64,000 nucleotides of DNA from Escherichia coli (GTDB lineage: Bacteria > Pseudomonadota > Gammaproteobacteria > Enterobacterales > Enterobacteriaceae), in NCBI RefSeq assembly GCF_041248615.1, contig NZ_CP158426.1; one strand, written 5' to 3'. The notes under the pieces were generated by a model. That model was not told the origin of the DNA and searched no databases. It saw only the letters and a program-made list of their open reading frames with translations. This document shows positions 6,988 through 61,797 of this stretch, one piece after another (within the stretch, counting starts at the first letter, position 1; every line of letters begins with the position of its first letter). The position numbers and the translations under genes were made by a program.

Positions 6988-8037
6988 TCACCAGTGATAA
7001 CTTATCCCTGTATCAAGTTTATCTGCACAGTCAATCCCTGCAGGGCTATTTCTGACGTTATTAAATTTATAATCTAAAAATATCTGCATATTTTTGTTGA
7101 AGTAGTAGCTAAAGCCTATTTCTTCATAATCCAGCACTCGGGTTCGTTGGCCAGCGATTGTTTGCGTCAGGTGAGTGTAACCAATGTTGGGCTGAAATCT
7201 GTCGGTCAGCATATACTTAGCCAGGGCTTCATAGCTGAAGGAGTTGGTATTATTGTTGCGAGGTTGGGGGTTGATAGCATTATTACTCTGCGTGAAAACA
7301 GTGGCCAGATAAAGTTTTTTGCTCTGGTACTTGACCCCCTCTGCGAAAGTTCGAATATTTTTTTTGTAACCGGCATTTTGTTGCTGTGAAAATGTGGTCT
7401 CGGAAGATGACGCAGCAAAAATTGCACTGAGCTTTGGCGTAAAGAACCAGGACAGCGAAGTACCAATACCATTGCCGTTCTGTTGTCTTAAGGTACGATT
7501 CTCGTTGTTACTTTTGAACTGGTATTGCATCGCTAATTTCACTGTCTGTTGAAAGACCGAAAATTTTTTTCGCCACGTAATAAGATCAAGGGCTCGGCCA
7601 CGCATGAAGTTGTCAATGTAGTTATAGGACATTTCCCTGAATAAGGGAGAGCGGTCTGTTATTGAGGTAACGTCGTACAGTACCCCCCAGTTCCGACCGA
7701 TATCAAGGCTTCCCCAGTACGGGTTGTCTACACCCAGAAACGCTAGCCGGGTTGCATTTCTGCTGGCATCTGATGCACTAACCGTATATTCCCAATGAGC
7801 GTAGGTTTGCCAGTTGTGGGTAAGTTCATGCTTCCCAATCAACCCAAAATAGAGATAGCTACGATCGCCATCATCTTTTATGTTATTACTGGTAAAACGT
7901 CTCGCAATAATAGTGCCATAAAAATCGAGACTTTTACCGTCCTGGTTCAGAACGTTGACCGCAAAAGAGTAGGGTGAGAAGAGTAGTGTGATTGATATAA
8001 AATAATAGCGTAAGTAATGCAATGTCATGATAAACAT
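6988..8037 (-). CDS. Outer-membrane porin-like beta-barrel protein
   Basis: 349-aa ORF with signal peptide (LLFSPYSFA), alternating amphipathic strands rich in Y/G/N/T, aromatic C-terminus. Confidence 0.55.
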   Translation of the reverse strand: MFIMTLHYLRYYFISITLLFSPYSFAVNVLNQDGKSLDFYGTIIARRFTSNNIKDDGDRSYLYFGLIGKHELTHNWQTYAHWEYTVSASDASRNATRLAFLGVDNPYWGSLDIGRNWGVLYDVTSITDRSPLFREMSYNYIDNFMRGRALDLITWRKKFSVFQQTVKLAMQYQFKSNNENRTLRQQNGNGIGTSLSWFFTPKLSAIFAASSSETTFSQQQNAGYKKNIRTFAEGVKYQSKKLYLATVFTQSNNAINPQPRNNNTNSFSYEALAKYMLTDRFQPNIGYTHLTQTIAGQRTRVLDYEEIGFSYYFNKNMQIFLDYKFNNVRNSPAGIDCADKLDTGISYHW

Positions 8038-8133
8038 CCCTAAAGATGGCTCAGCATCTGAATGGTGGCAGGGTGGACAATTTACCGCGACATATGCTCA
8101 TTGCTTAAATCCAATGGAATGAGATTATTATCG

Positions 8134-8970
8134 TTATGCTGAAGCGTTTTGTTTATGGCTAAAATAACTGATGATGCCATTAGAAATGGCGGATGCAATT
8201 TTGTTGCGGAATGCTGTTGTGCCTAATAATTTCTCCTCCTGTGGGTTGGTGATAAAAGAGGTTTCAATCAGGACAGATGGGATATAGGGTGATTTAAGTA
8301 CGGCAAAAGCTGCCTGTTCTGTATGGTTTGAATGCATATGGTGGACAGGAGAAATATGGTGAACTATATGTGATCCCAGTAAAAGACTTTCCCTGATGGT
8401 TTCAGTCTGTTCAAGATCGAAGATGATTTTGTCGAGATACTTGTCTCTGTGAATGATTCGTTTTCCTGCAATATTATCAGCAGCATTCTCACTTTTAGAT
8501 AGATACCTTGCCATAGCGCTGCTGGCTCCCCGTGTTGAAAGTGCAAAAACGGAAGCGCCATGGGCTGCAGGACTTGCGAAACCATCGGCGTGAATGGACA
8601 TAAATAGATCGGCTTTGTGTGCGTGAGCAATCTGTACGCGATCGTATAGTGGAATAAATGTGTCATCCGATCGCGTCTGGAGTGCATTAATACCGTGGCT
8701 ATTGAGAATGGCTTTTATCTTAGAGGTAATATCCAGTACTACATGTTTTTCCAGCGATCCTTCACAACCCACTGCGCCGGAATCAATACCCCCGTGTCCA
8801 GGATCTAGCATTATCGTAAATTTGCTACGCCCATTTGTTGGGAGGGAGGAATGCTTATGACTTAGCTGAGGTCGCATATGTGCATATGTCAGCGGTATAG
8901 CCAGTGTATTGGCTGCGAGGGCCGCTAAACCAGTAAGAATAAGTTTTCGCCGGGTAATGTTGGTGTTCAA
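8134..8970 (-). CDS. N-acetylmuramoyl-L-alanine amidase (AmiA/AmiC-like)
   Basis: 278-aa ORF; Tat-like signal RRKLILTGLAALAA; amidase_3 motifs (DPGHGG, SIHADG, ETSFITN). Confidence 0.8.
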   Translation of the reverse strand: MNTNITRRKLILTGLAALAANTLAIPLTYAHMRPQLSHKHSSLPTNGRSKFTIMLDPGHGGIDSGAVGCEGSLEKHVVLDITSKIKAILNSHGINALQTRSDDTFIPLYDRVQIAHAHKADLFMSIHADGFASPAAHGASVFALSTRGASSAMARYLSKSENAADNIAGKRIIHRDKYLDKIIFDLEQTETIRESLLLGSHIVHHISPVHHMHSNHTEQAAFAVLKSPYIPSVLIETSFITNPQEEKLLGTTAFRNKIASAISNGIISYFSHKQNASA

Positions 8971-9412
8971 TGTTGACGCCTCATGCTGAATGATTTGTTA
9001 TGTTATAACGTTATGAATTATTTAAGGTCGAGGACTTGAATGTTATTTTTTGTTGCTTCGGGTTACTTAATATTAATCATTGGAAAATCACGAGGCTCCC
9101 AATGTATTGATAAATTGGATTTTTAATACCCATCACTACCTCTCATCGCTTGAATCATGATGACATCAGGCGTCCAGGTATGATCGTAATCTGCAAGAGC
9201 ACTGCTGATTAGCCTTTGTCCCATCTGTTTACTTTAAATCCTGAATTATCAAACAGGACAATGGAGTCCTGCTGGAAACATATTGATATAGATCCTTTCA
9301 AAAGATAATTATTCTCATTATTATTGGTTATGTTATAACGTAACAATTGAGGGTGTGCCGAGATTTAGAATGAGTCTATCCATTATTCGATGACTTATTC
9401 TGGGGAGGAATT

Positions 9413-10795
9413 ATGTCAACTGAACATATCAAAGAAGAAAAACTCAACATTGGTGCTGTGCTGGCTGTATCACTTAGTACAGTGATTGCGATGCTGGACA
9501 GCACTATCGCAAATGTTGCCTTACCTGTTATTGGCAAAGATTTTGCCGTCTCAGAAGCTGCATCCATCATGATAATCAATGCTTACCAGTTTGCTGTGGT
9601 CGCTTCATTGCTGGTATTCGCTGCATTGGGAGGCAAAATAGGTAACAAACGTATTTTTATTCTTGGAGTGATTTTTTTTGCGCTTTCCTCGTTAGGATGT
9701 GCACTTTCTGAAACACTGATGATGCTGACGGCTTTTCGCGTCATTCAGGGCTTTGGGGCTGCGGCCATTCTAAGTGTGAATGCGGTGTTGATTAAAGAGA
9801 TCTATCCTGCCCGGTTGTTAGGTCGTGGATTGGGGATTAATGTAATGGTGGTCTCTGTTTCCGCAGCGGCGGGCCCGTCAATTGCTTCAGCTATTATGTC
9901 AGTTGCGAACTGGAACTGGTTGTTTTCTATTAATGTACCGATCGCTTGTATTTCATTGCTGCTCTGTATTGTATCGTTCAAATCGACGCAACGTACCGAA
10001 AACCGGTTTGATAAAGCGGGTGCGTTGCTGGTTTTCCTGACGTTCGCTTCGTTTTCAACGATGATGCTGGGTCTGGCGAGGAACAACGTGTTAGACGTTA
10101 TCCCAAGCTCGATTATTCTTGTCGTGCTGGCAATCACTTTGTATCTGAATCAAAAAAGAAAGATTACTGATGCTTTGATCCCGGTTGCGATATTTCGCAA
10201 CAGGACATTTTCTCTGTCGTTATTAATGTCTTTGTTATCATATAGTACGCAGTTACTGGCATATGTCTCCTTACCATTTTATTTTCATAATGTATTAAAC
10301 CGCAATGTCGTTGAAATTGGCATGCTGTTAACGGCATGGCCGCTGGCGACAATGTTGACGTCATTGGTCGCGGGTGAACTAATCAAAAAGTTCGAGCCCA
10401 ACCTGGTAGCATTTACCGGACTATTACTACTTTTGATAGGCACTCTTTTAATGACATGGCTGCCCGTACAACCCTCGAATCTGCAGATCCTCTGGCGGAT
10501 CGCTATTTGTGGTTTTGGTTTTGGACTATTCCAGTCCCCTAATAATTTTCTCATTATGACTTCGGTCCCACATGAAAATAGCGGTATTGCCAGCGGATTA
10601 TTAGGCAGTTCACGTCTGATTGGGCAGATTATTGGTTCTGTGCTGGTGGCGTTTTTCTTTAATAACTTTGGGCGTAATGTAACAAATATTAGTCTTTTTG
10701 CCGGAGCATTGTTCTCATTTATGTCTCTGGCGGTGAGTTATCTCCGCTATAAATCTGCTTCTCATGACGTTGGTTTTGTTAAGAAAGTAATATAA
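9413..10795 (+). CDS. MFS transporter (drug:H+ antiporter-like)
   Basis: 460-aa ORF with about 14 hydrophobic segments and an MFS signature-like loop (GKIGNKR). Confidence 0.8.
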   Translation: MSTEHIKEEKLNIGAVLAVSLSTVIAMLDSTIANVALPVIGKDFAVSEAASIMIINAYQFAVVASLLVFAALGGKIGNKRIFILGVIFFALSSLGCALSETLMMLTAFRVIQGFGAAAILSVNAVLIKEIYPARLLGRGLGINVMVVSVSAAAGPSIASAIMSVANWNWLFSINVPIACISLLLCIVSFKSTQRTENRFDKAGALLVFLTFASFSTMMLGLARNNVLDVIPSSIILVVLAITLYLNQKRKITDALIPVAIFRNRTFSLSLLMSLLSYSTQLLAYVSLPFYFHNVLNRNVVEIGMLLTAWPLATMLTSLVAGELIKKFEPNLVAFTGLLLLLIGTLLMTWLPVQPSNLQILWRIAICGFGFGLFQSPNNFLIMTSVPHENSGIASGLLGSSRLIGQIIGSVLVAFFFNNFGRNVTNISLFAGALFSFMSLAVSYLRYKSASHDVGFVKKVI

Positions 10796-10854
10796 GTCTT
10801 TCAATAAAATAATCATGTGATGCTATTAAATTACAATTCATTTAACTCATTGAG

Positions 10855-11943
10855 GTGCTAAGTATGCTTAATGGAAAAATATTATTCTCATTATTCATAT
10901 CATCGATAATATTATTATCAACGGCAAGCTATGCCAATAGTAGTGAGGTGAGTAAGACGATAAATGACCAAAATATGAAAAATACTGAAGAAATACCCAT
11001 AAAATTCAACCGTATTATTATCACCGGCAATTGCCCCTTTGGTGTAATTATGGCAAATGATTTGGCATATAAACATGTTGTGGGCGTAGGACCTTGGGCT
11101 TTTCTGCATTCAAACATGAAACTTCTCAAGGATATGAAGCCAGATATCGACCGTATCACTACTGACTTTATTAATAAAGACTATGTTGTAAATATGGAAT
11201 CCTTACTAAATTTACAACCAGATATTATTTACTATTATGGTAAAAGTCAGAATGATAATCTGCAGCGGGCAGGGATCCCAACTATTAATCTTGATGCTGG
11301 TGGTGACACGAAATTTGAGCCAGTAGTAACGCAAACGTATTGGGAAAACGAATTTAACCAGACGCTTGGTTTACCTCACAGTCACAAATTTTCGGATGCA
11401 TGGAAGAGAAGCCTCAATGAGGCAAAACCATATGCCGAGAAGATCAAATCACAACATATTCGGGCATTATATCTTGAGCAGAGTGATGGGAAAGAGCTCA
11501 AGGTGAGTGGGCCGAAAACATATGGTGATACCTATCTTAAGATGGCGGGGATGGAAAATGTAGCAAGTGATCTGGTGGTAAAAGGGGATGCTGGCAGGTA
11601 CATTAATGTTTCAATGGAGCAAATAATTCAGTGGGATCCCGATGTTGTATTTGTGGTCTTTGGTAGCGCGAAGGATATTCTTAATAATAAAAATCCCGGG
11701 CAAGATTGGCATAATGTTAAAGCATTCAAAGATGGGAAAATATTTTCTACACCCGTAGGACTACATAATTGGGGAGGATTGTCTGCTGAGACTTCGCTAT
11801 TACCATTGTTTATGATTAATAAATTTAACCCTGACTATATAACAGATGCAGAATTGAAAGTTGCAACGCGGTTACACTATAAAAAAGTGTTTGATTATGA
11901 AATTCCGGACGCGCTATTAACCGATGAGTTAAGACAGCGGTAA
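10855..11943 (+). CDS. ABC importer substrate-binding protein (siderophore/heme/B12-type)
   Basis: 362-aa ORF with signal peptide, directly upstream of FecCD-type permease and ATPase genes. Confidence 0.7.
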   Translation: MLSMLNGKILFSLFISSIILLSTASYANSSEVSKTINDQNMKNTEEIPIKFNRIIITGNCPFGVIMANDLAYKHVVGVGPWAFLHSNMKLLKDMKPDIDRITTDFINKDYVVNMESLLNLQPDIIYYYGKSQNDNLQRAGIPTINLDAGGDTKFEPVVTQTYWENEFNQTLGLPHSHKFSDAWKRSLNEAKPYAEKIKSQHIRALYLEQSDGKELKVSGPKTYGDTYLKMAGMENVASDLVVKGDAGRYINVSMEQIIQWDPDVVFVVFGSAKDILNNKNPGQDWHNVKAFKDGKIFSTPVGLHNWGGLSAETSLLPLFMINKFNPDYITDAELKVATRLHYKKVFDYEIPDALLTDELRQR

Positions 11944-11986: not shown

Positions 11987-13000
11987 ATGCAGGAAAGACA
12001 AAAATACCGCATGCTGATGTGGATTTCAATCGTATTGTTACTGATTGTGGCTATGATTTCTTTGTTCATAGGTCGCTATACATTATCTATCCCCGAAATA
12101 ATGACGGAGGTATTACATGATAATGGTCACCGTTGTTTGAGCGCAGGATTCTCGGTTATATGCAATCTACGGTTGCCAAGGATTATTGCCGTCATGATGG
12201 TAGGGGCAGGGCTATCAGTAGCAGGCGTGACGTATCAAGCGGTGTTGCGAAATGCACTGGCTAGCCCGGATGTGCTCGGTACATCTTCCGCCGCAGCGTT
12301 CGGCGCAGCACTTGGGATACTGCTAGGTTTTCCACTACAACTCAGCGCTTTTTCCTCTTTCTTCTTTGGCATTGTCAGCCTTTTATGCGTGATGGGACTT
12401 TGCCATTTCAAGAAAAACAATGGGGAGCTCACGACTATCCTGTCGGGCATCATAGTGGCTTCGGTGTTTATGTCTTTTGTATCAATCATTAAATATGTTG
12501 CCGATCCACAGGACGAACTCCCGGCTATCGTCTTCTGGCTTATGGGGAGTTTCGCTTCTCTGGTCAAAGAGCAGGTTTATGGACTCATCCCGCTATACAT
12601 CATTTGTTATCTGGCTATTTACAAACTTCGATGGAAAATCAATGTGTTGTCTTTGGGAAATGATGAGGCCAAAATTGCTGGAATGAACCCACAATTGTTG
12701 AATACAGTTTTGCTAATCACAGCCTCAATTTTGGTGGCAGCATCAGTCACCATCGCTGGCGTGGTGGGCTGGGTTGGTCTGGTTATCCCGCATCTGGTTA
12801 GAACGCTGGTCGGGTACAACCATAGCAAGCTGATCCCGGCTTCGGCTGTATGTGGTGCGTTGTTTTTATTGGTCATCGACAACATTGCCAGGACCCTGAC
12901 TTACGCAGAGATCCCCATTGGAATACTTACTGCTCTGGTTGGTGCGCCTTTATTTGCTGTACTGTTCATCATGAGTAACCGATATGATCGAAGTGAATAA
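11987..13000 (+). CDS. ABC importer permease, FecCD/BtuC family
   Basis: 337-aa polytopic ORF with GWVGLVIPHLVR-type motif. Confidence 0.8.
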   Translation: MQERQKYRMLMWISIVLLLIVAMISLFIGRYTLSIPEIMTEVLHDNGHRCLSAGFSVICNLRLPRIIAVMMVGAGLSVAGVTYQAVLRNALASPDVLGTSSAAAFGAALGILLGFPLQLSAFSSFFFGIVSLLCVMGLCHFKKNNGELTTILSGIIVASVFMSFVSIIKYVADPQDELPAIVFWLMGSFASLVKEQVYGLIPLYIICYLAIYKLRWKINVLSLGNDEAKIAGMNPQLLNTVLLITASILVAASVTIAGVVGWVGLVIPHLVRTLVGYNHSKLIPASAVCGALFLLVIDNIARTLTYAEIPIGILTALVGAPLFAVLFIMSNRYDRSE

Positions 13001-13739
13001 TCTGACGTTCGCATTCAAAAAGAGTAAAACTGCCTTTAACAATATCAGCTTCTCCATTGATGAAGGTGAGGTACTGTGCGTATTAGGACCGAATGGTGTT
13101 GGCAAAACAACATTGCTTAAAACGGTTACCGGTCTGTATCAACCGGTTAGTGGCTCATGTCATATTGGCCGAGTGGGAAACCGGAAAGCTCGTATGGCGT
13201 ATGTCCCGCAGGCCAAACGTGTTCACTTTTCTTACAATGTACTCGATTTCATCTCCTTTGGGTGCCCATTACGGGGCGGAATGCTGGCATCTCCTGGGGC
13301 GAGGGACATCGAAAAAGCGGCGCGAATATTGTCGGGACTTGGCGCTTCATATCTTGCAACCAAAGACGTTAACCAGATAAGTGGAGGTGAACTACAGATG
13401 TGCTACATCGCGAAGGCGCTGGTCTCAGAGCCGGACATCCTTGTGCTTGATGAACCTGAATCAAATCTTGATTTTAATAATCAGTCTCTCATTATCAATT
13501 GGTTGCACACGTTGTCGCGAGAGAAAAAAGTTACTATTATCCTGAATACGCACTTCATCAATCATGCAAATAACATTGCAGATAAATGTTTGCTAATGGG
13601 AAAAGATAGTTACTGTTTTGGAACAACACAGAGTGTCTTACAAGAGTCTCTCCTCGCCGATTATTTCCATGTTCCCGTTAAACGCTGTCATTTTGAACAC
13701 AAAGGAATACAGAAAGAATCATTTATTGTTGCAGTGTGA
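12984..13739 (+). CDS. ABC importer ATP-binding protein
   Basis: Walker A GPNGVGKTT, signature LSGGELQM, Walker B LVLDEP; overlaps permease stop (coupled). Confidence 0.85.
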   Translation: MIEVNNLTFAFKKSKTAFNNISFSIDEGEVLCVLGPNGVGKTTLLKTVTGLYQPVSGSCHIGRVGNRKARMAYVPQAKRVHFSYNVLDFISFGCPLRGGMLASPGARDIEKAARILSGLGASYLATKDVNQISGGELQMCYIAKALVSEPDILVLDEPESNLDFNNQSLIINWLHTLSREKKVTIILNTHFINHANNIADKCLLMGKDSYCFGTTQSVLQESLLADYFHVPVKRCHFEHKGIQKESFIVAV

Positions 13740-13934: not shown

Positions 13935-14552
13935 ATGATTAAAAAATTCGTTGAAGAATATCTTAATCAGATCTACATAAAAAAATACTCAATTATTACT
14001 ATTAATTCTCTTGATGAAGCTTCAATTATATCTAATATGCCTCATTGTTGGGAGCGTGATTTTCTGAAAAGAGAGCTGCATCTTCGAAGTGATATTGTAT
14101 TGAAAGCTAGAAGTAAAATAACCCCCTTCAAATGGTCTTCTGTAAATGGTAATAATGAAGATCTTAAGGCTTTATCCAATAGGTATAATATTAGCAATGG
14201 GGTGACTTTTGTTATAAAAATAAAACATGATGTCGTGATCTTCACGATGTACTACAATGAGGATGATGAGGATTTCATAAGATACTACTCTAGAAAGAAA
14301 CATAAAATATTGTATGATGTTATGAGTCTTTTTGAATCCCATTATGAACAAACACCCAAACATGTATTCACTGTACGAGAAAAGGAAGTTATGAATTTGC
14401 TGAAGTTTGGAAAAACTTATATTGAAATAGCATTTATTCTTGGTGTAAGTGAAAGGACCGTCAGATTTCATATCAATAATATTCTTGATAAATTGAATGT
14501 GACATCAGTTCGTTATGCGATCTTTAAAGCAGCTTCCGAAGGTTTGATCTGA
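13935..14552 (+). CDS. LuxR-family transcriptional regulator
   Basis: 205-aa ORF; C-terminal LuxR HTH (REKEVMNLLKFGKTYIEIAFILGVSERTVRFHINNILDKLN); AT-rich N-terminal domain. Confidence 0.7.
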   Translation: MIKKFVEEYLNQIYIKKYSIITINSLDEASIISNMPHCWERDFLKRELHLRSDIVLKARSKITPFKWSSVNGNNEDLKALSNRYNISNGVTFVIKIKHDVVIFTMYYNEDDEDFIRYYSRKKHKILYDVMSLFESHYEQTPKHVFTVREKEVMNLLKFGKTYIEIAFILGVSERTVRFHINNILDKLNVTSVRYAIFKAASEGLI

Positions 14553-14883: not shown

Positions 14884-16188
14884 TTAAATGAAGATACGTA
14901 GGCCGACCGCCGCCAGATGATCTGATACATTATATGACGCATCAGTGTTACCGCTTGCTTTCTCATAACCGTATTCAATATAGGTCACTGCGTTTTTCCC
15001 CAGCCAGTAATCGGTACCCAGCGTGGTGGACTGGAAGTGTTGACCGTCCATCGCATCACCGCCTTCGGTCCAGTCAAAGTTGGCATAGACGCTCCACTCA
15101 GGGGTAATTTTGAACTGTGAGGCATATTCCAGACCCAGAATCGTTTCTTGGTCGTTAGTCTGTTTGCTGGCGCCGCTGGTTGCTGCCTGAACGTCATCAA
15201 CTTTGTTGATATAGTAAGTCGCTTGCGCGCCGTTATACCAGGTGAAACTATCAAAGCTGGTTGTGTACTTAGCGTTCATCCCCATCGAATAGGTATTACC
15301 GTCATATGAAGGGCCGGTCACCGTTGTAACTGGAACAGTACCACCGTGCGGACCTATGGGCACATCCGTGGTTATGGTACCCTGATTGACAGAATAGTTG
15401 TTATAAGCTGCCGTACCGGAAAGTGAGAAACCATTATCGAAGCGATATTGTGCTGCTAACGCAGCGCCGCCGTGAACAGTCGCGGAACCATCGTGGTACG
15501 CATCATGCATATCCGGTCCGTTGCCGTAACCGCTGCCAAAACCAATTTTATCGACATCGTCATTCCCTTGGCCCATTACACCCACCGTGAAGGCCTTGGT
15601 GTTGTAATAATAAATAACAGCCGAGTTAATAATATCGGTCGACATACCAGTGGTATCATGTTTGGCTTTGCCACCGTATGCATAGGTGGTATCAATTCCC
15701 AGCCCCCAGTCGGTTGGGGAATATTGCTTACCGAAAGTCACCACCCCATATTCATCATTACCTATCCCCGCATACGCCTGACGGGTATAAACATCGTTAC
15801 CCTGATTATCAGTTGCGGAATCCAGACCGTGTATGCCAGTTTCATAATAACCTGCTGCGTAATAGCCTTTGTCATTAATATTGTGTCGTAGTGCGACACC
15901 CAGACGTGAGTCGTTGTTTTGTATATTATGTTCTACACTGTGCGCTGAATCGTTCTTTGCCATGAGACGTAAGGATCCCATAACTGAAATGGCTGTATCA
16001 TCATTTTGATAAATCATCTCCCCCTTGGTCTGTGTAGCAGTATATGCTGGAGCCGTATGTTCCCCGCTACTCACCTGTGCACAGGCAGGTGCGACTATTG
16101 CTGCAGTAATAAGCGGAGCAACAATAAATGGTTTAAGTCTTATATATTTTACGTGCATAGAAACCCCATGATCATTGTTTAAGTTCAT
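14884..16188 (-). CDS. Outer-membrane beta-barrel protein (porin-like)
   Basis: 434-aa ORF, likely start at internal MHVKYIRLKPF (16158); signal peptide, G/Y/T-rich strands, C-terminal ...GLRIFI. Confidence 0.5.
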   Translation of the reverse strand: MNLNNDHGVSMHVKYIRLKPFIVAPLITAAIVAPACAQVSSGEHTAPAYTATQTKGEMIYQNDDTAISVMGSLRLMAKNDSAHSVEHNIQNNDSRLGVALRHNINDKGYYAAGYYETGIHGLDSATDNQGNDVYTRQAYAGIGNDEYGVVTFGKQYSPTDWGLGIDTTYAYGGKAKHDTTGMSTDIINSAVIYYYNTKAFTVGVMGQGNDDVDKIGFGSGYGNGPDMHDAYHDGSATVHGGAALAAQYRFDNGFSLSGTAAYNNYSVNQGTITTDVPIGPHGGTVPVTTVTGPSYDGNTYSMGMNAKYTTSFDSFTWYNGAQATYYINKVDDVQAATSGASKQTNDQETILGLEYASQFKITPEWSVYANFDWTEGGDAMDGQHFQSTTLGTDYWLGKNAVTYIEYGYEKASGNTDASYNVSDHLAAVGLRIFI

Positions 16189-16422: not shown

Positions 16423-17694
16423 CTAGCCAGCTTGAAGCGTCGTTTTTCCTCTCCCCAGTATGTAGGGCGGTACATAGGATTTGCGGCAAGTATCCAGATA
16501 ATCCGACCACCACTGCATCATTGCCTTTCTTGCTTCCAGATGCTCTGCTCTGTGAATATATGCCTGGCGTACGGAGTTACGTTCCTGGTGGCTCATTTGC
16601 CGTTCAACAGCATCCTGTGACCATATACTGGATTCCATAAGGGCACTGCATGCCATTGTCCTGAAACCGTGACCACAGATTTCCATTTTCGTATCCCAGC
16701 CCATCAGGCGTAGCGCCTTGTTCACCGTATTTTCACACATGGGTTTATACGGATTATGGTCCCCGGGGAACACGAGTGCATTATCTCCTGAGATATCCTT
16801 AATCTTTTTCAAGATCGCGATCGACTGTTGTGAGAGGGGTACGATATGAGGCCTGCGCATTTTGGCACCACGACCAGAGTAACGCACGCCTTCAATAGCT
16901 TCGCGCGTGGCGGGTATTGTCCAGACCTGGTTTCCGAAATCAATTTCATGCCAGCGGGCAAAACGCAATTCACTCGAGCGAATGAACAGATGCAGTGTTA
17001 GCAGGATGGCAAGGCGAGTGAGTTCACGGCACTGCTGAAAACTCTCAATGCTCTCAAGCAGTTCTGGAAGACGCTCCAGTGGTAGAGCGGGGTAGTGTCG
17101 TTTTACTGGTGGAGCCGTCACTCCGTCAAGGTTTGCTGCCGGATTAAAATCGATTAATCCATGATGCACGGCGTAGCGCATGATATTCCGGAGGTGCTGG
17201 CGTGTACGGGATGCAACTTCCAGGAGACCCTTTTCCTCAATTCCTTTTAATAAAGTGATGAAATGGCGGGGTTTCAGTTCTGAAACTGACATGGTGCCAA
17301 TGACTGGGAAGATATGATTATTCATGCTGGCGAGCAAACGGTCGGCGGTGTTCTCTGACCATTTTTTATTGCTCTTGTGCCATGCAAGTGCAACGTTTCT
17401 AAACACTTTCTTTGGCATGCGAGAACTGCGTTCGGCTGCTCGCTGCTCTGCTGGATTGATGTTCAGTACCAGCATTTTGCGAATACCTTCACGTTGACTA
17501 CGGGCGTCTGAGAGGGAGATGACTGGGTAGGCACCGAGTGCAATACGTGATTCTTTACCCTTAATACGGTACTTGAGATACCAGTGACGTGAACCGCCAG
17601 GTTTGACCAAGAGATACAGACCGTGGGAATCGGAAACTTTAAAGGGTTTATCAGATGGTTTGAGACTGCGGATTTTGGTGTCGGTAAGAGACAT
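16423..17694 (-). CDS. Tyrosine integrase, P4/CP4-57 type
   Basis: 423-aa ORF; N-terminus MSLTDTKIRSLKPSDKPFKVSDSHGLYLLVKPGGSRHWYLKYR is typical of P4-like integrases; adjacent to tRNA 3' end. Confidence 0.9.
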   Translation of the reverse strand: MSLTDTKIRSLKPSDKPFKVSDSHGLYLLVKPGGSRHWYLKYRIKGKESRIALGAYPVISLSDARSQREGIRKMLVLNINPAEQRAAERSSRMPKKVFRNVALAWHKSNKKWSENTADRLLASMNNHIFPVIGTMSVSELKPRHFITLLKGIEEKGLLEVASRTRQHLRNIMRYAVHHGLIDFNPAANLDGVTAPPVKRHYPALPLERLPELLESIESFQQCRELTRLAILLTLHLFIRSSELRFARWHEIDFGNQVWTIPATREAIEGVRYSGRGAKMRRPHIVPLSQQSIAILKKIKDISGDNALVFPGDHNPYKPMCENTVNKALRLMGWDTKMEICGHGFRTMACSALMESSIWSQDAVERQMSHQERNSVRQAYIHRAEHLEARKAMMQWWSDYLDTCRKSYVPPYILGRGKTTLQAG

Positions 17695-17855: not shown

Positions 17856-17931
17856 TGGCTCCTCTGACTGGACTCGAACCAGTGACATACGGATTAACAG
17901 TCCGCCGTTCTACCGACTGAACTACAGAGGA
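17856..17931 (-). tRNA. tRNA-Asn (anticodon GTT)
   Basis: Reverse complement reads TCCTCTGTAGTTCAGTCGGTAGAACGGCGGACTGTTAATCCG...GGTTCGAGTCCAGTCAGAGGAGCCA; 76 nt cloverleaf. Confidence 0.9.
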
Positions 17932-60890: not shown

Positions 60891-61541
60891 TCAATGAGAC
60901 ATCATTTCCTCGACCACTTCTTCGCTACTCAACTGATACGGATAATACGTTGGCCAGTTTTCCATTTCATTCAATAAAGATTGCTGTGAATCATTACCCA
61001 TAAAAATGTGAAAATGAGATGATTTTCGTGGTGCAATTATATGATCGCTAAATTGAATATATTTAGGGGCTTTGCTTTCAGGATCTTTACATTCGAATAA
61101 GTAACGAACGCCTTTCTTGCCTGATTTATAGGTGAGTATTTTGTATCCCTCGTAATCATATTTACAGGATATTGTTGAATTATTTCTATGGAATTCAACA
61201 ATGCCGTCCTCAATGCCAATCATCTCGATATCTGTCACATAACCTTTGCGATAATAATCTTTAATTTCAGCAAATGTTTTAGTTTTATCTGCATCCGCTT
61301 TCTTCTGAAAGACGGGGTCAAGTTTGCCACTTTGCAGTAAAGGATAAACGGATTGCCAGACTCCATCCCAGTCACTTAGCGTTCGGTTTTGTACATTGGC
61401 ATCATCAAAAACACCATTAGCAGCTTTTTGTTCGACCTCTGTTAAGGGTTTGCCGTGTGAGTGATGACCATGCGAAAAGGCAGGAGCGCTAACAATAAAG
61501 ACACCTAAAGCAACAGCCAGTTTATGAAGACGAATCGCCAA
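60891..61541 (-). CDS. zinT: ZinT (YodA) periplasmic zinc/cadmium-binding protein
   Basis: 216-aa ORF; signal peptide and His-rich HGHHSHGKP metal site. Confidence 0.85.
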
Positions 61542-61797
61542 AACAGTTTCCTCCAGAGTTAATGTATATGATGTGTAATGTTATATTGTAACATATAACA
61601 AAATGCAACAACTCTTAGGAGACAAGAGAATAGTTCTCTCAGGTGTGCTTAGCTATCTTATTGAAATAAAATAAATTATGTCGATGATTTGAGGTTGATG
61701 ACAAACGAAACATAACTTGATGCGATCTGTGTGGGCCGGATAGGGCGCTCGCGCCGCATCCGGCAGGGATAACGCGTACTTTGTCGGCAATATGAAG

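Follow-up and report, generated by a model that had tools for sequence, protein, structure and literature searches.

Two divergent operons of a mobile element carry an identical 15-bp motif ahead of each of them, which raises the question of whether they share a regulator and, if so, which protein it is. The locus lies in a 64,000-nucleotide stretch of Escherichia coli DNA (hereinafter, the window) that is 100% identical to the chromosome of E. coli NRZ14408 (NZ_LT599825.1; window position = record position − 2,115,671), and positions 1 to ~17,700 of the window belong to an integrative conjugative element (ICE) located at tRNA-Asn beside mtfA, of which they form the end with the cargo and the integrase. 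Exact copies of the 15-mer GTTATGTTATAACGT were found on the plus strand at 8997–9011 and 9327–9341, both within the 442-bp gap (35.5% GC) that separates a paralogue of the amidase gene amiA from the divergent gene of a major facilitator superfamily (MFS) transporter, and each copy included the 8-bp palindrome GTTATAAC (9002–9009 and 9332–9339). Copy 1 ended 26 nt from the TTG start of the amidase gene (8970, minus strand), and copy 2 ended 71 nt from the ATG of the MFS gene (9413). The original prediction had presented this pair as a site for one regulator of both operons, plausibly the LuxR-type protein encoded 4.5 kb away. The two copies, the palindrome in each, and the distances given to the amidase, MFS, and LuxR-type genes (start of the latter at 13935, ~4.6 kb off) were all correct, and a site shared by the amidase and MFS operons was supported; its assignment to the LuxR-type protein, however, was not, since the motif matched the operator pattern of a different regulator. 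According to the sequence comparisons described below, both copies very probably serve as operators of Zur, the zinc uptake regulator of the host, which is a repressor of the Fur family.

The two-dimer Zur box of E. coli, TGWNAYRWTATAWYRTNWCA, was derived from the crystal structure of the Zur–DNA complex (Gilston et al. 2014, PMC4219657). Its purine/pyrimidine RNNNY skeleton, RNNNYRNNRYNNYRNNNY, is contacted by four Zur monomers through Arg65 and Tyr45, and its central TATA tells Zur sites from Fur sites (PMC4219657). The similarity of the two copies extended slightly beyond 15 bp, namely, ATT[T/G]GTTATGTTATAACGT[T/A]A, and the meaningful unit was a 20-mer. Scanning of the window with TGWNAYRWTATAWYRTNWCA (up to two mismatches) returned the following sites and nothing else:

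8996–9015: Zur box 1, TGTTATGTTATAACGTTATG, containing copy 1; candidate operator of the amiA-paralogue/porin operon; two mismatches to TGWNAYRWTATAWYRTNWCA
9326–9345: Zur box 2, GGTTATGTTATAACGTAACA, containing copy 2; candidate operator of the MFS–ABC (ATP-binding cassette) importer operon; one mismatch
61574–61593: zinT operator, TGTAATGTTATATTGTAACA, 32 nt upstream of zinT (60891–61541, minus strand); no mismatches
61579–61598: zinT operator in a register shifted by 5 bp, TGTTATATTGTAACATATAA; two mismatches

Since zinT is a validated Zur target, its operator served as a positive control inside the window. In E. coli K-12, the same pattern found the validated operators of znuC, ykgM, and pliG with zero, one, and one mismatches, respectively. 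The K-12 ykgM operator, TGTTATGTTATAACATAACC, includes the 15-mer with one substitution; when each was read toward its gene, box 2 and this operator were identical at 19 of 20 positions. K-12 is without this element. Direct reading showed that the skeleton RNNNYRNNRYNNYRNNNY (positions 2, 6, 7, 10, 11, 14, 15, and 19) was satisfied at 8/8 positions in both boxes, and TATA stood at positions 9–12 in each. The classical 7-1-7 core TGTTATA-N-TATAACA was tried as well; it placed copy 1 at two mismatches and copy 2 in a register shifted by 5 bp, and it was replaced by the structure-based 20-mer because both copies then share one register.

A position weight matrix (PWM) was built from the four validated operators. 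Box 2 had the highest score in the window (26.7 bits), with 25.4 bits for the zinT operator and 18.9 bits for box 1, whereas the best 20-mer apart from the zinT operator and the intergenic regions of the module scored ~10 bits. On the same matrix, the validated operators scored 25.4–29.0 bits when self-included and 20.4–24.2 bits when left out one at a time. Sites with at least 18.9 bits were expected 0.005 times per 64 kb (first-order Markov null) and 9 × 10−5 times per 442 bp of null sequence modelled on the AT-rich gap, and not one site in ~18 Mb of null sequence attained 26.7 bits. No further Zur boxes of at least 11 bits were found by the PWM scan in the other ~40 kb of the ICE. As for the 15-mer itself, it had six matches in the window at up to three mismatches (1.32 expected; six were reached in 0 of 100 shuffles), two of the extra matches falling on the zinT operator (~61575–61594), while an exact pair in one 442-bp region was expected ~10−4 times by our own arithmetic (97,000 position pairs/4^15). 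The motif is not a common genome-wide repeat, a possibility raised together with the original prediction; it is a regulon-wide operator motif, also present at zinT and tied to both promoters.

Several points weigh against the identification of the boxes as Zur operators and should be considered together. The score of box 1 was slightly under the leave-one-out range of the validated operators, its distal end (..TTATG) deviated from the pattern, and the matrix rests on four operators only. The 25 nt that separate box 1 from the amiA start are within the range of the validated operators (10–33 nt), whereas box 2 lies 67 nt from its start codon, and its overlap with a promoter consequently depends on the hexamers proposed below. 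For Serratia, Hafnia, and Yokenella, the preference of Zur was assumed from the published gamma-proteobacterial consensus. Finally, the transporter genes are annotated like iron-chelate systems and a Fur-like site stands beside box 2, so that the metal specificity of the cargo is doubtful.

This last point leads to the question of whether the boxes could be Fur operators, with the module being an iron-chelate uptake system under iron control alone. Importers of the FecCD/Peripla_BP_2 type, to which this one belongs, are as a rule annotated for iron-complex transport, and Fur and Zur boxes are alike AT-rich palindromes. Furthermore, a Fur-like sequence, identified with moderate confidence, was found directly upstream of box 2:

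9304–9322: Fur-like box, GATAATTATTCTCATTATT, abutting box 2 and overlapping the putative −35 element of the MFS promoter

This 19-mer matched the Fur consensus, GATAATGATAATCATTATC, at 15/19 positions in the forward and 16/19 in the reverse orientation and was the best Fur match in the window (in AT-rich null sequence, 0.019 matches of at least 15/19 were expected per 442 bp). The corresponding block was stronger in Klebsiella variicola (18/19) and in E. coli A38 (17/19), whereas in Serratia, which keeps the Zur boxes, it matched at only 12/19 positions. The two boxes themselves fitted the Fur consensus at 12/19 and 10/19 positions, as did the bona fide Zur operator of zinT (11/19), all below the threshold of ~14/19, and they have the central TATA and the RNNNY skeleton by which Zur sites are told from Fur sites. 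A Fur site beside box 2 would supplement Zur control rather than substitute for it. Control by Fur in place of Zur is accordingly considered highly improbable, while dual control of the transporter operon by zinc and iron is possible in some lineages, as the sequence of the adjoining block suggests.

A further candidate would be another host factor of Zur-like specificity, either a Fur-family paralogue or a different global regulator. The block TTTCAAA.GATAAT upstream of box 2 does represent at least one further conserved element in the MFS promoter. Meanwhile, to our knowledge, the Fur family of E. coli comprises Fur and Zur only, and the boxes are nearly identical to sequences bound experimentally by E. 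coli Zur, which makes such a factor a very unlikely binder.

If Zur is the repressor of both operons, the boxes would be expected to overlap the core promoters, for which the following putative elements were read from the sequence of the gap:

9002–9007, minus strand: putative −10 element TATAAC of the amiA promoter, in the centre of box 1, 18 bp downstream of TCGACC
9026–9031, minus strand: putative −35 element TCGACC of the amiA promoter, within the conserved block CCTCGACC
9312–9317, plus strand: putative −35 element TTCTCA of the MFS promoter, with a 16-bp spacer to TATAAC
9331–9339, plus strand: putative extended −10 element TGtTATAAC of the MFS promoter, inside box 2

The zinT operator had the same layout (TTGCAT, 17 bp, and TATAAC at positions 9–14 of the box), and in Vibrio cholerae, a Zur box covering the −10 element and the transcription start site (TSS) of shyB was shown experimentally (PMC6381278). 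In the E. coli ICE, Yokenella, Salmonella, and Hafnia, the block CCTCGACC was conserved with constant spacing to box 1. Serratia was without it and had instead TGtTATAAC, a TG-extended −10 element, directed toward the amidase gene; this replacement of the −35 block is a compensatory pattern, if the putative hexamers are read correctly. The block TTTCAAA.GATAAT...TCTCAT, which includes the putative −35 element of the MFS promoter, was conserved in all lineages, and its distance from box 2 did not vary.

The following scheme can be proposed, in which binding by Zur, the positions of the hexamers and of the transcription starts, the downstream co-transcription, and the physiological role are all inferred from sequence. 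A dimer of dimers of zinc-loaded Zur would read the skeleton and the central TATA of each 20-bp box, which would span roughly −20 to −1, its palindromic centre GTTATAAC doubling as the −10 element (TATAAC) of the adjoining promoter. Under zinc sufficiency, Zur would occupy both boxes and occlude RNA polymerase at both promoters, namely, the leftward promoter of the amiA paralogue and porin genes and the rightward promoter of the MFS and FecCD-type ABC importer genes. When zinc is scarce, Zur would lose its sensing zinc and leave the DNA, and both operons would be expressed. The cargo of the ICE would need no dedicated regulator for these boxes and would use the Zur protein of any enterobacterial host that the element enters.

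The same promoter features could be taken to mean that no dedicated regulator is involved, the repeat arising from two AT-rich core promoters that resemble each other and have a TATAAC −10 element in common, or else from local duplication or chance. The gap is indeed AT-rich, the centre of the motif is a plausible −10 element on both strands, and simple promoter scans gave several sigma-70-like matches in the gap. A −10 hexamer, however, accounts for six conserved bases and not for positions 5 and 7–14 together with patterned flanks in the 17 boxes described below, nor is the frequency of high-scoring sites in the AT-rich null given above compatible with composition. In addition, the boxes remained fixed while the adjacent flanks changed, both between A38 and NRZ14408 and between genera. 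Outside the ICE, the two boxes of one locus shared exact words of 11–15 bp only, which suggests that the ICE boxes agree over 15 bp because both are near-consensus sites of a single protein, that is, through convergence on an operator consensus rather than through a recent duplication. An origin without a dedicated regulator is thus hardly probable.

Conservation of the putative Zur boxes was analyzed in related loci. At least nine other lineages had paired boxes, placed as in the ICE amid intergenic DNA that had diverged, namely, Citrobacter, Yersinia, three Serratia species, a Serratia-like contig, Yokenella, Salmonella diarizonae, Hafnia, and Klebsiella aerogenes; the degraded locus of K. 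variicola had only the box on the MFS side. A genome scan with the MFS protein showed that Yersinia artesiana and Citrobacter gillenii carry identical ICE cargo (100% MFS identity), and the presence of the same cargo in three genera indicates recent transfer of the ICE between them. Box 1 of C. gillenii carried a single change (…GTTATA) that brought it closer to the Zur pattern (one mismatch, 23.6 bits). In the three Serratia species, chromosomal versions of the module were found (71% identity for MFS and 66% for AmiA), and the loci of Yokenella, S. diarizonae, Hafnia, K. aerogenes, K. variicola, and the Serratia-like contig had the same core layout, with porin and amidase genes on one side and genes for MFS, a 133-aa lipoprotein, a substrate-binding protein (SBP), a FecCD permease, and an ATPase on the other. 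Homologues of the SBP were confined to Enterobacterales.

Box-anchored ungapped alignments were used for the comparison, since MAFFT alignment of the whole gap misplaced box 1 of Serratia, which reads in the opposite orientation. Positions 5 and 7–14 (A.GTTATAAC) were invariant in 17 boxes from distinct lineages, and box 2 was the longest invariant block in the intergenic alignment of the ICE and Serratia. Between NRZ14408 and A38, 43 of 444 columns of the gap differed; the differences crowded up to the edges of the boxes, with none inside either 20-mer (P ~0.017 under a uniform rate). The boxes were 330 bp apart in the ICE and 218 bp apart in Serratia, yet their positions relative to the genes were kept. 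The distance from box 1 to the amidase start was 25–28 nt in the ICE and the three Serratia loci and 13–34 nt in all loci (annotated starts), and that from box 2 to the MFS start was 63–75 nt, except for two loci with re-annotated or split starts. According to the annotations of the related loci, no regulator gene was common to all of them, so a conserved factor of the host must bind the boxes.

These comparisons also bear on the regulator proposed originally, whose gene belongs to the same cargo:

13935–14552, plus strand: LuxR-type regulator gene (Pfam: weak Autoind_bind and GerE matches)

Co-regulation of the amidase and transporter operons by this protein would agree with the partially palindromic character of the motif, the size of which fits a dimeric helix-turn-helix (HTH) protein, with the position of the gene 4.6 kb downstream, and with the finding that, in Serratia, a LuxR-type gene likewise follows the module. 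However, the LuxR-type proteins of the ICE and Serratia aligned only over a 52-aa HTH segment (37% identity), far below the values for AmiA and MFS, and are consequently not orthologous, although the DNA motif is the same. No LuxR-type gene was found within 7 kb of the locus in Yokenella, S. diarizonae, Hafnia, and K. aerogenes, which have both boxes, or in K. variicola, which has the MFS-side box. The motif is without the CTG-N10-CAG character of lux boxes, and K-12, a strain without the element, has a validated Zur operator of nearly identical sequence (19/20). In A38, moreover, the LuxR-type gene abuts a cluster of AfsA, acyl carrier protein (ACP), and ketoacyl synthase (KAS) genes, which is a more natural target. 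Binding of the motif by the LuxR-type protein is therefore regarded as very improbable.

It should be noted that in the A38 variant of the ICE (NZ_CP028738.1; L003:15580–20997), the LuxR-type gene is followed by genes for transketolase subunits, an MFS protein, a HAD hydrolase, KAS, ACP, and an AfsA-related hotdog protein. This cluster looks like a butyrolactone-type signal or small-molecule pathway. It had no Zur box, the single PWM match (11.3 bits) being at background level, and in NRZ14408, its place is taken by the gene of a 424-aa outer-membrane protein.

The genes that make up the module in the window are as follows:

6988–8028, minus strand: OmpC/PhoE-like porin (Porin_1, 2 × 10−50), 105 bp downstream of the amiA paralogue
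8134–8970, minus strand: amiA paralogue, an N-acetylmuramoyl-L-alanine amidase with a Tat signal (Amidase_3, 6 × 10−48); first gene of the leftward operon
9413–10795, plus strand: DHA2-type (EmrB-like) MFS transporter (MFS_1, 3 × 10−50); first gene of the rightward operon
10864–11943, plus strand: Peripla_BP_2 SBP of the FecCD-type ABC importer (Pfam)
11987–13000, plus strand: FecCD permease of the same importer (Pfam)
12984–13739, plus strand: ABC ATPase of the same importer (Pfam)
14884–16158, minus strand: 424-aa porin-like outer-membrane protein (weak, marginal Porin_1 match)

The amidase scored 413 bits with the NCBIfam AmiA equivalog model (cut-off 400) and matched E. coli AmiA (PDB 8c2o) with an E-value of 8 × 10−98; its twin-arginine signal was present, and the zinc-site motifs GHGG...EKH...SIHADG were intact. 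Given that the zinc-ligand motifs are kept and that the protein is very close to the housekeeping AmiA of E. coli, it looks like an extra copy and not a zinc-independent replacement. The porin gene is probably co-transcribed with it; wherever the amidase side of a related locus was intact, the amidase–porin pair was kept, while in the degraded locus of K. variicola the amidase was truncated and no porin was called beside it. The MFS protein matched the efflux_EmrB subfamily TIGR00711 (1 × 10−58) below the cut-off of that model, and the nearest solved relatives of the SBP were assorted chelate binders, including the nickel-complex binder of Helicobacter pylori. The 424-aa protein, which may be an uncharacterized large outer-membrane channel, had no Zur box of at least 11 bits upstream of its gene in the PWM scan. 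It was 66% identical to the product of a 425-aa gene located between the amidase and MFS genes in K. aerogenes (the same arrangement was found in K. variicola), and for this reason it was assigned to the module.

In the chromosomal versions of the module, a predicted lipoprotein of 132–134 aa is encoded between MFS and SBP (L012:6569–6973, L013:6565–6969, L015:6562–6963, L017:6556–6954, and L010:8390–8788). It has an LSGC lipobox and a glycine-rich hydrophobic C-terminus and belongs to no Pfam family; its gene was cleanly absent from the ICE version. An uncertain third, weak Zur site was identified in the 68-bp gap between the MFS and SBP genes:

10816–10835: possible Zur site, TGTGATGCTATTAAATTACA, ending 28 nt before the SBP start

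This site had three mismatches to TGWNAYRWTATAWYRTNWCA and 15.1 bits, the fifth-ranked 20-mer of the window (0.08 sites of at least 15.1 bits expected per 64 kb), and was found only in the ICE lineage, i.e., the lineage without the 133-aa lipoprotein gene.

Two other features of the amidase/MFS gap were considered. Rfam analysis of 8900–9500 with a permissive E-value gave only two sub-threshold matches to eukaryotic snoRNAs and no evidence for an RNA element. A 28-codon open reading frame (ORF) at 9040–9126, to the right of box 1 (MLFFVASGYLILIIGKSRGSQCIDKLDF; GAGG ribosome-binding site), was considered as a gene transcribed rightward from box 1 and rejected; it probably is not a gene, because its counterparts shrink to 22 codons in Yokenella, 8 in Salmonella, and 1 in Hafnia. 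The peptides of NRZ14408 and A38 differed at 5 of 28 residues, and the conserved nucleotides within the ORF coincide with the putative −35 region of the amiA promoter, by which they are better explained.

As to the function of the genes under the putative Zur boxes, a reasonable, though unproven, role would be a back-up cell-wall amidase combined with uptake of zinc or a zinc chelate via the porins and the ABC importer, the MFS protein being a possible exporter of a chelator. In a broader and more tentative interpretation, the Zur-boxed set (porin, AmiA paralogue, DHA2 MFS, FecCD-type importer, 424-aa outer-membrane protein, and, in most lineages, the lipoprotein) could be an uncharacterized, self-contained zinc-starvation module of Enterobacterales, importing zinc or a zinc chelate by porin and ABC transporter with neither a TonB-dependent receptor nor biosynthetic genes of its own, one version of which would have been captured by a conjugative element of the family that includes the high-pathogenicity island (HPI) and ICEKp, where it took the place of the yersiniabactin locus.

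Comparison with known systems revealed both similarities and differences. The boxes share with the E. coli Zur operators of ykgMO (L31p/L36p), zinT, znuA/znuCB, and pliG (PMC4219657) the 20-bp two-dimer pattern, the central TATA, the RNNNY skeleton, and a position just upstream of the presumably regulated genes, with divergent promoters as at znuA/znuCB. In contrast to znuA/znuC, where one box is shared, two boxes 330 bp apart are present here, one per promoter. Moreover, an amiA paralogue, a porin, an MFS transporter, and a FecCD-type importer are not members of the described E. coli Zur regulon; here, such genes lie on an acquired ICE, and their operators are predicted. The boxes belong to a well-known operator class, and the regulatory logic is that of textbook Zur repression, which is useful rather than surprising.

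In Pseudomonas, extra copies of amiA/amiC are established members of the Zur regulon (PMC6103462, PMC11672702), and those of the PA5538 cluster are found together with dksA2, folE2, pyrC2, and a gamma-carbonic anhydrase gene (reviewed in PMC6103462, PMC11672702). The similarity lies in an extra amidase under Zur (predicted here) that would help to remodel or back up the zinc-dependent enzymes during zinc starvation; the difference is that the amidase gene is accompanied here by a porin gene and is divergent from a transporter operon, whereas in Pseudomonas it stands among paralogues of cytoplasmic zinc enzymes. Zur-controlled cell-wall endopeptidases are likewise known, namely, ShyB of V. cholerae and the product of mepM/yebA beside znuA in Enterobacterales (PMC6381278). 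These are also peptidoglycan hydrolases tied to zinc starvation, and the shyB box covers the −10 element and TSS, as proposed for the boxes analyzed here; however, they are M23 endopeptidases rather than amidases, and the own box of the amiA paralogue differs from read-through from znuA.

Opine-type zincophore loci (staphylopine cnt, pseudopaline, and yersinopine) are regulated by zinc and combine an MFS/EamA efflux protein with a chelate importer, which is of the FecCD and Peripla_BP_2 type in the case of yersinopine (PMC7438024). The transporter complement of the module is of the same kind, but the likeness is one of functional analogy, and membership in this group is not claimed: no CntL (nicotianamine-synthase-like) or CntM (opine dehydrogenase) genes were found in the annotations or Pfam listings of 11 loci, and passage through the outer membrane is proposed to occur by porins, not by a TonB-dependent receptor.

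The element that carries the module belongs to an ICE family, and occupies a chromosomal site, best known for the yersiniabactin island. It contains a virB-type type IV secretion system (T4SS), DUF2857, AlpA, and MobC, and its integrase end in the window is formed by the following features:

16423–17694, minus strand: ICE integrase, with 78.5% nucleotide identity to the HPI integrase
~17856–17931: tRNA-Asn

With the HPI/ICEKp family it shares the tRNA-Asn site by mtfA, a related integrase, the virB-type T4SS, and mobilization genes. In other strains, the HPI occupies the same tRNA-Asn/mtfA site with ybtS-ybtX-ybtQ-ybtP beside int, whereas here this slot is filled by the Zur-boxed module, and control would be exerted by host Zur, perhaps also Fur, instead of YbtA/Fur. 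KpZM, described as a separate 34-kb Zn/Mn module located upstream of ICEKp, was considered as a possible identity of this cargo and rejected, since a comparison by description gave no evidence for it. The stretch was present in 5 of 5,426 complete E. coli genomes, and a megablast search of window positions 8000–11000 against plasmids gave no match.

Thus, the regulator of this locus is reassigned, on sequence grounds, from the neighbouring LuxR-type protein to host Zur, and the enterobacterial Zur regulon gains two strong candidate operators, one for the amidase/porin operon and one for the MFS/ABC importer operon. No description of the module as a Zur target was found in open-access full text, and this conserved, unstudied set of transporters is a candidate zinc-acquisition system relevant to nutritional immunity. 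It would represent mobile cargo that leans on a conserved host repressor instead of its own regulator, and this reliance would explain why the same ICE works in E. coli, Citrobacter, and Yersinia. If the set is indeed a self-contained zinc-starvation module, a single transfer would provide a new host with a ready-wired, Zur-controlled (possibly also Fur-controlled) defence against the withholding of zinc by the infected host.

Beyond the ICE/mtfA region, a lambdoid prophage located at tRNA-Ser occupies ~19000–60800 of the window, between that region and zinT. Its genes include a frameshifted integrase gene, an exonuclease gene, dicB, ydfABC, tail fibre genes, and lom.

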